DNA from: a virus
Taxonomy: Duplodnaviria; Heunggongvirae; Uroviricota; Caudoviricetes
IMG/VR virus record: IMGVR_UViG_2565956714_000008
Location: 1 to 17,267 of that record
Length of the DNA stretch: 17,267 nucleotides
Direction: 5' to 3' (one strand)
The notes beneath the pieces were generated by a model. That model was not told the DNA's origin. It ran no database searches and saw only the letters and a list, made by a program, of their open reading frames with translations. The translations under genes and the position numbers were made by a program. Shown in pieces: positions 3,939 to 15,505 of the stretch (its first letter is position 1; every line of letters begins with the position of its first letter).

Positions 3939-4688
3939 TGTCTATTCCTCAATTAATGTCTACATGGCTATTTTTAATGTTATTACTGTTTGTCACTATA
4001 AAAAAACGCTCATTTGAGACAATTACTGACATTAACTGCTTCACTTGCTACGCATGGAACTTTTAATTAAATTAGCACAGGAATGTTAAATTTAATAAAC
4101 AAAAGGTTATTTCGCTGTATGATAAAAAAAACCGTTATAATTTATTAGTGAAAATCGTTTTTCAAGTGTTAGAAATTTATATCTCAATAGCGTTGGTTAA
4201 TGAGCATAGCCACGCTCCTGTAACGCTCACAAAACTCATCTGCCTGCGGCGGGTGTTCTGGTCAGTAGTAGATGTTTAAGGCGTGGCAGAGACATTTCAT
4301 CCTTACTCTACGGCATTGTTCTACATACATTGGTTGTGGTACTCACTTATCATCAGTGAGCGAACAGAGAATAGTTCAGTGATTTGAGTAATTAACCTGA
4401 TTAAATGAAGGGGTATAATAAATGATAATACTCTGGCTTTATCGTTAATTACTTAATTCCACATGTAAGCAATTTGCCCGCTTGGCATAGCAGGCATTTT
4501 TTCCAGGTACTTTTGAATGAGTACTGATGGATAAATACATTGCAGTGGCGTGCCACGTACCAAAACACCAGCCCTCATTCGAAACCACCCACCGCACTTC
4601 TTCCTTGAAATGGCGTTAGTCATGAAATATAGACCGCCATCGAGTACCCCTTGTACCCTTAACTCTTCCTGATACGTAAATAATGATT

Positions 4689-4733
4689 TGGTGGCCCTTG
4701 CTGGACTTGAACCAGCGACCAAGCGATTATGAG
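4689..4733 (-). repeat. att core copy: 45-nt duplicate of the tRNA-Ile2 3' end (acceptor/T-arm to anticodon loop), marking the left boundary of the integrated element
   Basis: tggtggcccttgctggacttgaaccagcgaccaagcgattatgag matches 15430-15474 at 44 of 45 positions (single C/T difference); the sequence diverges immediately after, and the region upstream in tRNA orientation is not tRNA-like. Confidence 0.85.
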
Positions 4734-4842
4734 TTGGTTGATAACCCTTTACTTACAGATACTTAGCGATACTTTTCAATACCTTAGCATTTTTTAAAAC
4801 TACTGTATAAATACCTGTATATACCCCAAAATACTTCTTTAC

Positions 4843-4890
4843 GGTATCCTATAGGTATCCTGGAGCAGAACAAGCGATTTTCCAGGATAC
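4843..4890. promoter_or_regulatory. Putative integrase arm-type binding sites (GGTATCCT direct repeats plus inverted copy)
   Basis: ggtatcctataggtatcctgg at 4843-4863 and inverted copy tccaggatac at 4881-4890; a near-identical block ggtatcctataagtatcctgg occurs at 15367-15387 beside the other att core. Function inferred. Confidence 0.4.
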
Positions 4891-4914
4891 CAGATCGCTT
4901 GGTGGGGTGTATGA

Positions 4915-6336
4915 GTGAAATTATTCAGATTCTCTAAAGTAAAAATTGCAGAACTGCCAACGCCGGAACATGGACAGGTCGAATATGGTGATACGGAGGT
5001 TAACGGGCTGCGTGTCCGTGTAGGTTCGTCTGGTGTGAAAAGTTTCTGCATTTCCCGTAAGCGTAACGGAAAATTTATTCGTGCAACGCTGGGGCGTTTT
5101 CCTGATCTGAGCGTGGATAATGCCAGGGCTAAAGCTATGGAACTCCTTGGCGAAGTCGCCACAACGGGGATAAATCCGAACATAGCAAAGCGCACTAACA
5201 ACAAGGCCATGATAACGCTGAGTGAGGCGATTGACGCCTACGTAAAAAATCGTGGCCACCGCCTGAAACCCTCCACAGAAAAACAGTACCGCAGCATATT
5301 ACAGAATTATTCCGGTGACTGGATGGCCCATACCCTCGCCAGTATTTCCCGCGAACGGGTGGAACAACGGCATAAGGCCATCACTGATGGGGCTGTATGG
5401 TTCGGTGCTGATAAAACCACGTTACGGGCTGGGGTTGGTACAGGAAGCAAGGCACAGGCCGATTTATGGGCGCGTGCGCTACGTGCTGTGTGTCGGTTTG
5501 CGCATGATCATTACCGTGATGATGCGGGTAATACTCTTTTACCGGATCCGCCGACTCTGGTACTGAGCACCAAGCGCCAGTGGCACGGAACGGTAAGAAA
5601 AACGGAACGTATCCGCCTGCATGATTTTCCCCGCTGGTTTGCTGCTGTAGCTGCTGTGCGCGACCAGGGCGAACAGGAAAGGGATGATATAGCTGTTACG
5701 GTATGTGATGCCGTGGAAATGGCACTGTTTACCGGACTGAGGAAATCAGAAGTTTTTGGCCTTACGTGGGATCGCGTGAATATGGGCGGTCGCTTTTTCT
5801 GGATAGACACCACGAAAAACGGGGATCCGCTTGAACTGCCGATCACTGATACGTTGCGGAAAATGTTTCTTCGCAGGCTAAAAAACAAAGCTGCTGATGA
5901 TGTGCTGGTGTTTCCTGGCGTGAAGGGAGTGATTCAGGAGACACGGCACATCATAGACCGGATAAGCGCGGCTACCATTCCTGAGGCGAACGATGAAATG
6001 CTCTTCCCTGTCCCGTTTAAGTGGCACGACGCACGCCGGACGTTCGGAACGGTTGCTGAGCTGGTGGGCGTGGGTAATTACATCCTCAAGCGCCTGATGA
6101 ATCACCGCACTATGCGAAGTGCCGACGTAACGCAGGGGTATTTACATTTCGGTGCTGATGAACTGCTGGAGCCAGCATCACGGATAGAACGGGCAATTCT
6201 GGAACATGCCGGGCTGGTGGAGAGTAAAAAATCTATCGATGCGCAATTACTTTCCGCACTGGAGGGCATGAGTGATGATGAAAAACGTCGTTTACTATTT
6301 GCTATAGTACAAGAAAAGAATGACATATATGGGTGA
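4915..6336 (+). CDS. int: Tyrosine recombinase / integrase, P4-like with N-terminal arm-binding domain
   Basis: 473-aa ORF starting GTG 4915. The N-terminus (LPTPEHGQVEYGDTEVNGLRVRVGSSGVKSFCISRKRNGKFIRATLGRFPDLSVDNARAKAMELLGEV) fits the arm-binding domain pattern of P4-family integrases; C-terminal region has catalytic-domain signatures (LFTGLRKSEV, HDARRTFGT, TQGYLHF). Lies 180 bp inside the att repeat. Confidence 0.9.
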   Translation: MKLFRFSKVKIAELPTPEHGQVEYGDTEVNGLRVRVGSSGVKSFCISRKRNGKFIRATLGRFPDLSVDNARAKAMELLGEVATTGINPNIAKRTNNKAMITLSEAIDAYVKNRGHRLKPSTEKQYRSILQNYSGDWMAHTLASISRERVEQRHKAITDGAVWFGADKTTLRAGVGTGSKAQADLWARALRAVCRFAHDHYRDDAGNTLLPDPPTLVLSTKRQWHGTVRKTERIRLHDFPRWFAAVAAVRDQGEQERDDIAVTVCDAVEMALFTGLRKSEVFGLTWDRVNMGGRFFWIDTTKNGDPLELPITDTLRKMFLRRLKNKAADDVLVFPGVKGVIQETRHIIDRISAATIPEANDEMLFPVPFKWHDARRTFGTVAELVGVGNYILKRLMNHRTMRSADVTQGYLHFGADELLEPASRIERAILEHAGLVESKKSIDAQLLSALEGMSDDEKRRLLFAIVQEKNDIYG

Positions 6337-7150: not shown

Positions 7151-7184
7151 TATCACCGTTGTTACTTAGAAGTACACGGTGATA
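7151..7184. promoter_or_regulatory. Inverted repeat TATCACCGT-N16-ACGGTGATA overlapping the ribosome-binding region of the downstream HTH gene; candidate operator
   Basis: Perfect 9-bp arms at 7151-7159 and 7176-7184. The half-site TATCACCG resembles lambda-type operator half-sites, although the spacing differs from lambda operators. Confidence 0.4.
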
Positions 7185-7187
7185 GAT

Positions 7188-7397
7188 ATGAATTTAAAGA
7201 AATCTGATTTATCAACTGACCGCCTTACACGTGCTGAAGCTGCTGCCTACCTTGGCGTTAACAATCAAACGCTGGCGAACTGGGCCTGTACTGGCAAGGT
7301 AAAAATCCCTTTCCATAAGCTGGGGCGCAAAGTGCTGTATATGCGCACTGATCTCGATGCTTATCTTGCATCCACTCGCAGAACGCAGACGGTGTAA
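7188..7397 (+). CDS. Xis/AlpA-superfamily helix-turn-helix DNA-binding protein (excisionase-like or induction regulator)
   Basis: 69 aa from ATG 7188 (track start GTG 7179). LTRAEAAAYLGVNNQTLANWACTGKVKIPFHKLGRKVLYMRTDLDAYL fits the excisionase-family HTH pattern (L..EAA.YLGVS..TL..W...G.IP..K.GR...Y...DLDAYL). Confidence 0.75.
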   Translation: MNLKKSDLSTDRLTRAEAAAYLGVNNQTLANWACTGKVKIPFHKLGRKVLYMRTDLDAYLASTRRTQTV

Positions 7398-8727: not shown

Positions 8728-9027
8728 ATGAGAACGTATTTATCTGGCTTGACTGCCAGCGGTTATGCACATCCCAAAATTATCCCCGGCGCTATTTATC
8801 TGGATAAGAACGGTAACAGAGTAACGGTAAAAGAACTGATGTTTGACCGTGTGTATTTTATTCGTGATGGCTATTCATTTCATAGTTCGCTGAACGTGGA
8901 GATCTTTATTAGCAGATTCAGGCGGGAAATCCCGCTTTCCAGAAATAACCATGTGTCACGTGTGAATGTGGATAAAAAACTACAGGAACTGAAAAACATG
9001 ATTGCCGCGTGGAGAGAGCAGAAATGA
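8728..9027 (+). CDS. Hypothetical protein, 99 aa
   Basis: ATG 8728 (GGGGA 9 nt upstream); its stop overlaps the replication-gene start (ATGA at 9024-9027), indicating translational coupling. Confidence 0.5.
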   Translation: MRTYLSGLTASGYAHPKIIPGAIYLDKNGNRVTVKELMFDRVYFIRDGYSFHSSLNVEIFISRFRREIPLSRNNHVSRVNVDKKLQELKNMIAAWREQK

Positions 9028-10841
9028 AAAAAGCGCCAAATTTAAAACACCAGTCGCGTGACAAAATGACGGAAGTCATCATTTTTGCGGGTAGTGATGC
9101 GTGGGCACATGCGAAGCAGTGGCAGGAACAGGACGGGCGACTGGCTGGCGATAACGTGCCTCCTGTCTGGCTTGGAGAGCAACAACTTGCCGAACTGGAC
9201 AACCTGCAAATCGTACCGGACGGACGCTATCGCGTGCGTCTCTATCAGGCGGGGTTATTGCGTCCGGGGCTTGTTAATACCATCGGGCAGAAACTGGCAG
9301 CGGCAGGTGTCAGGGATGCTGATTATTATCCTGAAGGAATGCACAGCCAGAAACGGGAGAACTGGCGCGAATATCTGGAACGTGAACGGGCAGAGCAGGC
9401 GGAAAAGAAAAAGGTAGTTGAACTGCCTGTAAAGAAAAAAGAGCGGGTAAAAGACGATAACGCTTCATCACTGGCGCTTAACCAGATGGGAGCAAGTCAA
9501 CGCGGCGAAGTTCTCCTGGCACATTATGGCGGTGAATTGGCGATTCATGCTGACTCTGACACTGTTCACCATTACAACGGCGTTGTATGGGAGCCAGTAC
9601 AGGATAAAGAATTACAGCGAGCTATGGCACAGATTTTCATTGATGCGGAGATCAGCTATTCGCAGAACGCCATTAAATCGGCGGTCGATACCATGAAGTT
9701 AAGTTTGCCTGTAATGGGGAATACAGCCCGTAACCTGATTGGATTCAGTAACGGGGTATTTGATACCAGAACAGGTAATTTTCGGGGGCATAACAAAAAC
9801 GACTGGTTGTTAATTGCCAGTGAATTACCTTTCAGCCCACCAGCAGAGGGGGAAACACTGGCAACACATGCGCCGAATTTCTGGAAGTGGTTACGCCGTT
9901 CGGTGGCTGAGAATGACCGCAAGGCAGATCGCGTACTGGCGGCATTATTCATGGTGCTGGCGAACCGGTACGACTGGCAGTTATTCATTGAGGTAACAGG
10001 GCCGGGGGGAAGTGGTAAAAGCGTGATGGCGGAGATTTGCACCATGCTGGCGGGTAAGGCTAATACAGTATCAGCAAGCATGAAGGCGCTGGAAGATGCA
10101 AGGGAACGTGCGTTAGTGGTTGGCTTTTCGCTGATTATCATGCCGGATATGACCCGCTACGCTGGTGATGGGGCAGGGATTAAGGCCATTACAGGCGGTG
10201 ACAAGGTGGCAATTGACCCGAAACACAAAGCCCCCTACTCAACGCGTATTCCGGCAGTAGTGCTGGCGGTTAACAATAACGCCATGTCATTCAGTGACCG
10301 CAGCGGGGGGATCTCACGTCGTCGGGTGATATTCAATTTTTCGGAAGTTGTACCGGAGAACGAACGCGATCCGATGCTGGCGGAAAAAATAGAAGGTGAG
10401 CTGGCGGTAGTGATTCGCCATCTGCTTACACGGTTTGCTGACCAGGACGAAGCCAGACGCCTGTTATATGAGCAGCAGAAATCTGAAGAAGCACTGGCGA
10501 TAAAGCGAGAGGGGGATTCGCTGGTGGACTTCTGCGGCTATCTCATGGCGTCGGTAATGTGTGATGGCCTGTTAGTGGGTAATGCTGAAATTGTGCCATT
10601 CAGCCCGCGCAGGTATCTCTATCATGCCTATCTGGCTTATATGAGGGCTCATGGGTTTGGTAAACCTGTAACACTGACGCGCTTCGGTAAAGATATGCCT
10701 GGGGCAATGGCGGAATATGGCAGGGAGTATATAAAACGGAAAACGAAGCACGGTTTACGTTCAAACGTGACACTGACGGAGGAATCAGAAGACTGGATGC
10801 CATCATGTGTATCAGTCACTAATGACGATAGCAAAAATTAA
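9024..10841 (+). CDS. Replication initiator: primase/SF3-helicase-like P-loop NTPase (Pri-Rep type)
   Basis: 605 aa from ATG 9024 (GGAGAGAG 5 nt upstream; track start GTG 9009). Walker A VTGPGGSGKSVMAEIC and a downstream hydrophobic-acidic segment (LIIMPDM) as candidate Walker B, in the C-terminal half; immediately followed by an iteron cluster as in PICI/SaPI and P4-type replication modules. The N-terminal half has no motif I can assign. Confidence 0.8.
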   Translation: MKKAPNLKHQSRDKMTEVIIFAGSDAWAHAKQWQEQDGRLAGDNVPPVWLGEQQLAELDNLQIVPDGRYRVRLYQAGLLRPGLVNTIGQKLAAAGVRDADYYPEGMHSQKRENWREYLERERAEQAEKKKVVELPVKKKERVKDDNASSLALNQMGASQRGEVLLAHYGGELAIHADSDTVHHYNGVVWEPVQDKELQRAMAQIFIDAEISYSQNAIKSAVDTMKLSLPVMGNTARNLIGFSNGVFDTRTGNFRGHNKNDWLLIASELPFSPPAEGETLATHAPNFWKWLRRSVAENDRKADRVLAALFMVLANRYDWQLFIEVTGPGGSGKSVMAEICTMLAGKANTVSASMKALEDARERALVVGFSLIIMPDMTRYAGDGAGIKAITGGDKVAIDPKHKAPYSTRIPAVVLAVNNNAMSFSDRSGGISRRRVIFNFSEVVPENERDPMLAEKIEGELAVVIRHLLTRFADQDEARRLLYEQQKSEEALAIKREGDSLVDFCGYLMASVMCDGLLVGNAEIVPFSPRRYLYHAYLAYMRAHGFGKPVTLTRFGKDMPGAMAEYGREYIKRKTKHGLRSNVTLTEESEDWMPSCVSVTNDDSKN

Positions 10842-10853
10842 ACTTATGGAATA

Positions 10854-11085
10854 ACTGTTCACCACTGTTCACCCTGTCATAAATATCTTTTATATCAGTA
10901 TATTATAGGGTGAACAGTTATTTATGAACTATTCACCAAACTATTCACTGTTCACCTTTTTGGTTGTTTATTGAGCTTCAAGGGTGAACAGTGGTGAACA
11001 GTTGGTGAATAGTTTTTGTAAAACTGTTCACCCCTTAACAGTATGAATTTAAATGGAAAATATCAAAAGGTGAACAGGTGAAGGG
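10854..11085. repeat. Iteron-type replication origin: about 11 copies of ACTGTTCACC / GGTGAACAGT in both orientations within AT-rich spacers
   Basis: tgttcacc at 10856-10863, 10866-10873, 10949-10956, 11025-11032; variant tattcacc at 10930-10937; inverted ggtgaaca at 10909-10916, 10983-10990, 10993-11000, 11069-11076; variants ggtgaata at 11004-11011 and ggtgaagg at 11078-11085. Several copies are tandem with ~10-bp period. Confidence 0.7.
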
Positions 11086-13822: not shown

Positions 13823-14020
13823 GCGGGTCCTTTCCGGCGATCCGGTAGGCTACGGGGCGTCAGGCGCGCGGGTTTTCGCTTTTTATGAAAATTTTCCGGT
13901 TTAAGGCGTTTCCGTTCTTCTTCGCCGTAACTTTATGTTTTTATTTGAAACACCCCCTGAAAAGAAAGGAAACGACAGGTGCTGAAAACGGGCTTTTTGG
14001 CCTCTGTCGTTTCCTTTCTC
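13823..14020 (+). other. Lambda-type cos site: cosQ-like segment, cosN-equivalent 12-mer (13855-13866, divergent) and cosB with R3, I1, R2 and R1 elements
   Basis: From 13867 onward the sequence (cgcgggttttcgctttttatgaaaattttccggtttaaggcgtttccgttcttcttcg ... ctgaaaagaaaggaaacgacaggtgctgaaaacgggctttttggcctctgtcgtttcctttctc) is nearly identical to my recollection of lambda left-end bases 13-170, including R3 cgtttccgttct (13907-13918), R2 agaaaggaaacg (13963-13974) and R1 cgtttcctttct (14008-14019). Upstream gcgggtcctttccggcgatccggtaggctacg parallels the lambda right end ACGGGTCCTTTCCGGTGATCCGACAGGTTACG. The 12-mer is GGGCGTCAGGCG here versus GGGCGGCGACCT in lambda. Confidence 0.8.
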
Positions 14021-14339
14021 GTTTTTGAGCAAAACTGGCTCTATACATGCTTAGAAATGCTAGGGTTTTTGCGTAATACAGGTAGTGCAGGAGATTCACC
14101 AGGGGATTATTCATATATGCTGGTAGGCGCTATGTGTTAGTGGTGAGCGAAAAACAATCAAAACCGACACCGTAAAAATAAAAATCACAAATTATCAATT
14201 AGTTGTGCCAGTGGTGATGGCGAATGAAATTTCAAAAACTAGCCTTTTTCCGCGATGCTTTCGCCCCGTGGCAGGCCACCCCACCAGGAGGACCCGCTAC
14301 AATTACGGTATCAACCTCATCACTATGGAGGCCATGACC

Positions 14340-15215: not shown

Positions 15216-15366
15216 TGATACCTCCGTCAGGGTTTTTGCCGGTCTCTTGGAGAGTTGGGGGCAAAAGTTCAGACCCGTAGCACTTTCTTGTTCGCAGGTG
15301 AACGGCTGCTACGACCCAACTGTTCTGTAGGCATGAGCCAATTCTTACTTGTTAATACTTCTCAGA

Positions 15367-15387
15367 GGTATCCTATAAGTATCCTGG
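15367..15387. promoter_or_regulatory. Putative integrase arm-type sites (second copy of the GGTATCCT repeat block)
   Basis: ggtatcctataagtatcctgg, 43 bp from the tRNA/att core; near-identical to 4843-4863 at the other end of the element. Confidence 0.4.
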
Positions 15388-15429
15388 TAAAGCAAGATAG
15401 TTTGGATACATCTGTAATTCATTGAAATC

Positions 15430-15505
15430 TGGTGGCCCCTGCTGGACTTGAACCAGCGACCAAGCGATTATGAGTCGCCTGCTCTAACCACTGAGCTAAA
15501 GGGCC
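15430..15505 (-). tRNA. ileY: tRNA-Ile2 (anticodon CAU, lysidine-type; anticodon-only tools would call tRNA-Met)
   Basis: Reverse complement of 15430-15505 is a 76-nt tRNA: GGCCCTTTAGCTCAGTGGTTAGAGCAGGCGACTCATAATCGCTTGGTCGCTGGTTCAAGTCCAGCAGGGGCCACCA, with 7-bp acceptor stem (one G-U pair), anticodon loop CUCAUAA and encoded CCA. It matches my memory of E. coli ileX/ileY and differs from elongator and initiator tRNA-Met. ileY chosen from the flanking gene order. Confidence 0.9.

Follow-up and report, generated by a model that had tools for sequence, protein, structure and literature searches.

The ends of an island inserted at a tRNA gene of Escherichia coli carry two closely matching blocks of short repeats, which raises the question of what reads them: the integrase of the island, another protein of the element, a protein of the host, or nothing at all. 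The window analysed here, a stretch of viral DNA of 17,267 nucleotides, corresponds to the ileY region of E. coli, with a left flank that matches the ypjA/ypjC side. Comparisons were made with 156 related loci (numbered with the prefix L below) taken from one-genome-per-species, viral and metagenome collections, in which the identity of the integrase (Int) ranges from 38 to 100%.

Integration site and gene content of the island

The island spans 10.7 kb and is bounded by a 49-nt direct repeat, identified by a repeat search of the window at 4686–4734 and 15427–15475 with two mismatches between the copies (96% identity). A single tRNA, with the anticodon CAT, was found by ARAGORN at 15430–15505 on the minus strand. 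The program calls it tRNA-Met; the sequence corresponds to tRNA-Ile2, in agreement with RefSeq, in which the homologous gene, beside ypjA/ypjC, is annotated as tRNA-Ile. This gene, at the locus ileY, is intact and constitutes the attB target. It holds the repeat copy at 15427–15475 (minus strand), with a probable core at 15457–15475, and the copy at 4686–4734 (minus strand) is a displaced 3' half of tRNA-Ile2 that forms the int-proximal junction. The last 19 nt of the displaced repeat (4716–4734, minus strand), CGACCAAGCGATTATGAGT, are the probable core or crossover segment. Within L001 and L002 the two copies of the tRNA half differ in the T-stem and are identical only over CGACCAAGCGATTATGAGT; given this difference in L001, the crossover is confined to at most these 19 nt, in the anticodon stem-loop. 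The original prediction was of a 45-nt core flanked by matching arms, of which the flanking arms stand and the extent of the core does not, the repeat being 49 nt long and the crossover 19 nt or less at its anticodon end. Insertion at the tRNA-Ile2 anticodon was found in 155 of the 156 loci, the exception being L153, in which another tRNA is used.

The tRNA-Ile2 3' half that is supplied by the element carries paired T-stem substitutions in L001 (26294–26369), in L002 (27721–27791) and at the distal end of L003. The T-stem of the element copy reads GTTGGGT...CCAACG and that of the displaced host copy GCTGGAC...CCAGCG, which gives lysogens a tRNA whose variant T-stem is compensated.

The int gene (4915–6336, plus strand) encodes a tyrosine integrase of 473 aa with matches to PF13356 and PF00589. 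It adjoins the displaced tRNA fragment, at the far end from the intact tRNA, and reads away from the att repeat, which is unusual. A small helix-turn-helix protein of 72 aa that is Xis-like (7179–7397, plus strand), matched to PHROG excisionase families, is a candidate recombination directionality factor (RDF) and was found in every relative checked. Further genes of the island encode a D5-type primase-helicase (9009–10841), an SSB, a major capsid protein E, a head decoration protein and an AlpA-like protein of 127 aa. This set of integrase, Xis-like, primase and capsid genes identifies the island as a phage-satellite-like element.

A near-identity search of a phage collection gave no match over the full length of the island; the matches were confined to a segment of the primase and a cos-like segment of 205 bp. 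The 205-bp segment (13823–14027) shows 92–95% identity to unannotated DNA of lambdoid and Stx1 phages, the matching segment of phage 2H10 immediately precedes the gene of the small terminase subunit, and a 26-nt inverted repeat is contained within it (13963–14019). It probably represents a cos or packaging site taken over from the helper phages. Right after the primase-helicase gene, positions 10840–11077 are dense in direct and inverted CTGTTCACC repeats (families D3, D7 and D14; inverted pairs I1, I2, I4, I9 and I14), an array that resembles a replication origin of the iteron type. E. coli strains combine this integrase and near arm with different cargo, namely capsid E and the decoration protein in the window and, in L001 and L159, a fusion of a ClpP-like protease and a capsid protein. 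The element is present at ileX as well as ileY. The island is a mosaic around a conserved integration module.

Repeat blocks on both sides of the core

The two 21-mers that had been predicted to match, GGTATCCTATAGGTATCCTGG at 4843–4863 and GGTATCCTATAAGTATCCTGG at 15367–15387, were located at exactly these positions, both on the plus strand. A search of the whole window with up to three mismatches returned these two sequences only, and none of 200 dinucleotide-preserving shuffles gave a match. In the repeat search the block common to both ends reaches 34 nt at 85% identity (4830–4863 and 15354–15387, family D6). The heptamer GGTATCC occurs six times in the window against 1.45 expected, with four of the six copies within the two arms. 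Each 21-mer consists of a pair of 9-bp units spaced by 11 bp, or one helical turn, and the two pairs flank the core in the same orientation; for the unit, the numbering G1 G2 T3 A4 T5 C6 C7 T8 A9 (consensus GGTATCCTA) is used throughout.

Five candidate arm-type sites were defined on the basis of this unit. On the int-proximal side, P'1 (GGTATCCTA, 4843–4851, plus strand) is identified by sequence and covariation and P'2 (GGTATCCTG, 4854–4862, plus strand) lies 11 bp from it. A third unit, P'3, was found by motif search in the inverted orientation 20 bp past the proximal doublet (4883–4891, minus strand), where CAGGATACC on the plus strand corresponds to GGTATCCTG on the minus strand. An inverted copy had been predicted at 4881–4890; it exists, as CCAGGATACC at 4882–4891, one base away from those coordinates. 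On the distal side, P1 (GGTATCCTA, 15367–15375, plus strand) is identified by motif search and by the geometry of the distal arm, and P2 (AGTATCCTG, 15378–15386, plus strand) lies 11 bp from P1. Relative to the anticodon, the doublets of the window begin 99 nt before on the distal side and 118 nt after on the int-proximal side.

Members of the integrase family occur widely in Enterobacterales, and 129 relatives from many genera, again with 38–100% Int identity, had enough upstream sequence to test for the doublet. A doublet with an 11-bp period lies upstream of int in all of them (129/129). When the best tandem repeat upstream of int was sought without bias, most loci gave the 11-bp doublet or a 10-bp ATAC-type repeat; in the window's own clade a 12-bp-period CTGTATAAA repeat was picked, and the doublet is also there by pattern search. 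When the doublet pattern was searched over 1.26 Mb of the relatives' loci, matches fell almost exclusively in arms. The proximal doublet of relatives starts 117–118 nt after GATTATGA, and the distal doublet starts 99–103 nt before GATTATGA in each of the 22 elements with a readable distal arm. The doublet is kept in all 129 relatives while the flanks drop to 35–85% identity.

The int-proximal arm was found in 87 complete E. coli genomes and the distal arm of the window in only 29. The distal arms of L001 (at ileX) and L002 (at ileY) are unrelated to it and keep GGTATCCTATAGGTATCCTAG at the same distance as in the window, with ACGGTATCCTATAGGTATCCTAG about 45 nt from the repeat. In relatives the distal doublet is followed, on the minus strand, by a hairpin with a T-run, which the element supplies as terminator of the tRNA gene; in the window this hairpin is degenerate. 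The inverted unit of P'3 type is absent from some relatives (L006), and where present it follows the class of the other units, being GGGATACC in L060, L122 and L153 of the C8 class. L153 (9750–10000, 60% identity), with its different tRNA and the core ...CGACCAATTGATTAAGAGT, keeps a GGTATCCCC doublet and an inverted GGGATAC unit; in this element the arm specificity appears to have been kept and the core target changed.

Core and int are separated by 180 nt, in which ATAC(C/T) short repeats had also been predicted. These are present and more ordered than described, forming two triplets on the plus strand with an exact 10-bp spacing: triplet A at 4759, 4769 and 4779 (4759–4783) and triplet B at 4811, 4821 and 4831 (4811–4835), the latter immediately 5' of the doublet. 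The six copies within 105 nt compare with 0.26 expected, and 0 of 20,000 shuffles reach six. Triplet A, which recurs in relatives as a phased TTACCT/ATACTT/ATAATT pattern, comprises candidate sites for an excisionase or a DNA-bending protein, and in the clade of about 60% identity phased AT(T/G)ACC units replace ATAC(C/T) at the same positions. On the distal side a single ATACT unit (15355–15359, plus strand) lies 12 nt 5' of the doublet, and most relatives have two ATAC-type units (ATACCTNCTTATACTC) before the distal doublet. A reading of the ATAC(C/T) repeats as weak arm sites in inverted orientation was rejected, given that in this reading they would carry TT where the units of the close family (Int identity of 54% or more) have CC at positions 6–7. 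Because C6C7 is invariant in the close family, the repeats represent a separate, 10-bp-phased motif class. The attL of KplE1 contains five sites for the excisionase TorI in two blocks on the same arm (PMC2951348); the two ATAC(C/T) blocks recall this arrangement, and excisionase binding or DNA bending is therefore favoured.

Three further features were identified in the int-proximal arm. The sequence TTTCAATACCTTA (4774–4786, plus strand) resembles an IHF site, with 12 of 13 matches to WATCARNNNNTTR, and the pattern is kept as TTTCA(A/G)T...TTA in nearly all relatives. A possible promoter element of int, CTGTATAAATA with a −10-like TATAAA (4803–4813, plus strand), is near-invariant in relatives of at least 67% identity; simple scans of both arms for sigma-70 promoters and terminators found nothing. 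Just upstream of the int start, P'3 is enclosed by an inverted repeat (4871–4901, plus strand) of CAAGCGAT (4871–4878) and ATCGCTTG (4894–4901), both arms of which copy the core half-site ACCAAGCGAT. Over 37 distinct sequences 97% of the cells of this repeat are paired, including seven G·U-type and three compensatory cells, and in L060 and L122 the copy of the core half-site extends to 16 nt (GCGACCAAGCGATTAT). The inverted repeat may serve as an operator of the core type for Int, or it may form a hairpin in the leader of int.

Covariation of the units with the integrase

The N-terminus of the integrase matches PF13356 (Arm-DNA-bind_3) over residues 9–94 (E = 2.5e-13, 50.4 bits against a cut-off of 27), in agreement with the N-terminal arm-binding domain that had been proposed for it, and the catalytic domain PF00589 spans residues 266–403. 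The DUF4102 N-domain, the tyrosine recombinase catalytic domain and insertion at a tRNA together place it with integrases of the IntSXT/P4 type, the IntSXT subgroup of tyrosine recombinases having been defined in PMC8138268. In that paper, with reference to Szwagierczak 2009, the DUF4102 arm-binding fold is described as similar to the arm-binding domains of lambda and Tn916 with the addition of one strand and helix; the lambda-type and DUF4102 domains belong to the same Pfam clan, CL0081 (PMC8138268). A sequence search of the PDB with the integrase gave weak matches only, to 3JU0 and 3JTZ (E = 0.02–0.5); the protein is not close to any characterised integrase. An AlphaFold2 model of the full integrase built from a 16-sequence alignment reached a mean pLDDT of 48, and its secondary structure alone was used. 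In this low-confidence model residues 21, 37 and 49, which track the site as described below, fall in the predicted strands 21–25, 31–37 and 40–50. Given the quality of the model, the placement of residues 21, 37 and 49 on a DNA-facing sheet is tentative.

The sequence of the unit varies among relatives. Most elements have GGTATCCTA, and the other classes are GGTATCCCC, GGTATCCCA, AATATCCTA, AATATCCCC, GGCACCCCC and GGTAGCCTA. The classes of the two arms agree in 21 of the 21 elements with both arms readable, the matched pairs being CCTA/CCTA (18), CCCC/CCCC (two; L006 and L072) and CCCA/CCCA (one; L122). All four or five units of an element change together, and they do so within the same host groups. 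The right flank of L006, of the CCCC class, is 84–85% identical to those of the CCTA-class elements L003, L004, L036 and L114, 64–78% identical to the other seven arms of that class and only 62% identical to that of L072 of its own class, and the left flank of L122 is 82% identical to that of L028. Variant doublets therefore sit within CCTA-like flanks, and the change is local to the units.

To relate the units to the protein, 107 distinct integrases were compared over 460 aligned positions, with changes counted on a tree of the catalytic domain. Base 8 is separated by residue 21 as the sole position, with Gln at T and Arg at C (Lys in one alignment-ambiguous sequence) and at least seven changes. 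The sole residue that separates base 9 is residue 37, with Gly at A or G and Thr at C over at least four changes. For bases 1–2 the sole separating residues are 30 and 49; GG and AG go with Lys or Arg at residue 49, AA and CA with Tyr, over at least four to five changes. In the integrase of the window, the residues that track the site are Gln21, Gly37 and Lys49. The integrases of L060 (CCCA, Arg21) and L013 (CCTA, Gln21) are 98% identical over residues 100–460 and 76% over residues 15–55, and the C-terminal part of L006 (CCCC) is 88% identical to a CCTA-class integrase. The relation between residue and base does not hold for L156 and L158, whose integrases are 38% identical; L156 has three and L158 two tandem units of 11-bp period, with a motif that differs from the arm unit.

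In the excised circle an uninterrupted module of about 450 bp takes in the P arm, the core, the P' arm and the start of int (its first 50 codons), and part of the covariation could therefore reflect co-transfer by recombination rather than selection. That linkage in a co-transferred attP–int module could account for the covariation solely is weakened by the CCTA-like flanks around the variant doublets.

The two blocks are very probably the arm-type sites of the island's own heterobivalent tyrosine integrase. At the level of sequence, the arm-binding domain, the fixed geometry, the conservation and the covariation of the units, both between arms and with the Int N-domain, are all as the original assignment of the repeats to P and P' integrase arms would predict. 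It is highly unlikely that the doublets are instead sites for an RDF, either the 72-aa Xis-like or the 127-aa AlpA-like protein. Head-to-tail repeats with a spacing of about one helical turn are the usual target of excisionases, and the element encodes two candidate proteins; however, the doublets are present in both arms at fixed distances and the sole residues that track the site are located in the N-domain of Int. L013, with GGTATCCTA units, and L061, with GGTATCCCA units, differ at base 8 in every unit, yet their Xis-like proteins match at all 60 aligned residues (of about 72); the protein was rejected as the reader of the doublet because it is unchanged across this switch from T8 to C8. 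The AlpA-like protein was found in just two of the 14 relatives checked and was rejected because it is missing from most relatives.

The int-proximal block might also be purely an operator for the transcription or translation of int, with a distal copy that has no role in recombination. Since int is read away from the core through the arm, the arrangement is comparable to that of KplE1 (CPS-53) at argW, where the P' arm sites of IntS lie near the −10 box and overlap the intS promoter, and IntS and TorI repress intS (PMC2951348). The conserved −10-like CTGTATAAATA 30 nt upstream of the doublet, and the inverted repeat between the doublet and the int start codon, point in the same direction. However, in the integrated island the distal doublet is 10 kb from int, after the last gene and with no gene downstream, and it is as conserved and as well positioned (99–103 nt) as the proximal doublet, with which it covaries. 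A purely regulatory role is therefore very unlikely, and regulation is more likely an additional than an alternative function of the int-proximal block. It is extremely improbable that the blocks bind a host protein or are a non-functional remnant of an arm that was duplicated long ago. Duplication can give rise to short repeats near att sites and nothing more specific favours these readings, whereas the blocks are conserved across at least 12 genera with flanks down to 35–70% identity, and within the same host groups their concerted changes go with single residues of Int.

Proposed attP, comparison with known systems and significance

From the observed repeats, their geometry and conservation and the covariation with the N-domain, we infer binding, bridging, bending and autoregulation as follows. 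In the excised circle attP would extend from about 15345 to 4903, with the tRNA-Ile2 anticodon stem-loop between them as the core. On the model of lambda, P2/HP1, L5 and KplE1, the N-terminal β-sheet domain of Int (about residues 9–94) would bind the units and its C-terminal domains the core, so that Int could bridge arm and core to form an intasome. Bending of the intervening DNA would come from the IHF-like site (4774–4786) and the 10-bp-phased ATAC(C/T) repeats, and the latter may be sites of the Xis-like protein. Given that int is transcribed away from the core through the arm, Int bound at P'1–P'3 probably also represses its own gene, a step that is speculative because scanning found no consensus promoter.

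The attP of phage lambda contains the arm-type sites P1, P2 and P'1–P'3, which are bound by the N-terminal domain of Int. The attP proposed here resembles it in its probably heterobivalent integrase, in a short motif that is distinct from the core and repeated on both sides of it, in a length of about 250 bp, and in a candidate IHF site between the core and one arm. The two differ in that the N-domain here is of the DUF4102/PF13356 type, with an extra strand and helix (PMC8138268), the units are arranged as tandem pairs 11 bp apart with one inverted unit, the anticodon stem-loop of a tRNA serves as the core, and int is read away from attP through the arm, whereas that of lambda is read toward attP. 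In KplE1 the int promoter region lies inside an att arm, as may be the case here, where two ATAC(C/T) triplets and the doublet lie between core and int. However, integrase and target tRNA differ from those of KplE1, and int is here beside the displaced tRNA fragment.

Among integrases of the IntSXT subgroup, to which that of P4 belongs (PMC8138268), P4 shares with the island a DUF4102 arm-binding and a catalytic domain, insertion in a tRNA, and an int gene beside attP. The two differ in their target, tRNA-Ile2 here and leuX in P4, and in the motif of the site. The attP of P4 is also reported to carry repeated sequences to either side of its core (Pierson and Kahn 1987). The arm-binding domains of the HPI and HAI7 integrases (3JTZ and 3JU0; Szwagierczak 2009, cited in PMC8138268) are the only known solved structures of the type. 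They belong to the same Pfam family as the N-domain of the island integrase, with a weak sequence match. To our knowledge 3JTZ and 3JU0 were solved without DNA and hence offer no contacts between residues and bases to set against Gln21, Gly37 and Lys49, and we know of no solved protein–DNA complex for a DUF4102 arm-binding domain.

A second element in tandem, on the left side of the same tRNA, was seen at many loci (L008 at 9708, L061 at 2142, L096 at 9711 and L135 at 2145). The distal doublet of the tandem neighbour is usually of another class (AATATCC, GCACCCCC) or of another motif family, which in L034, L044 and L053 is TGCTGCCA or TGTCGCCA, at about −124 nt from the anticodon. It appears to be common for tRNA-Ile2 to be occupied in tandem by elements that differ in arm specificity. 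Where tandem neighbours of the same family were examined they differ in class in four of five cases, a number too small for significance.

Arm-type sites are a textbook feature of lambda-like integrases, and their presence here is therefore expected. The comparison adds a precise map, open to testing, for an integrase family that is widespread among enterobacterial phage satellites and uncharacterised. The map covers how far attP extends, five candidate Int sites and candidate sites for IHF and an excisionase, together with a putative one-residue-to-one-base correspondence for the DUF4102 arm-binding domain, drawn from covariation. If confirmed, arm sites would become predictable from the integrase sequence in genome annotation, and arm specificity could be re-engineered to give orthogonal integration tools that share one attB. 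Tentatively, and with more doubt than confidence, the correspondence may be read as an evolvable address code (residue 21 to base 8, residue 37 to base 9 and residue 49 to bases 1–2) that has been switched repeatedly among competitors for tRNA-Ile2 and gives each a private intasome. Were such a code true, elements in tandem at one tRNA would escape excision or deletion by each other's integrase.
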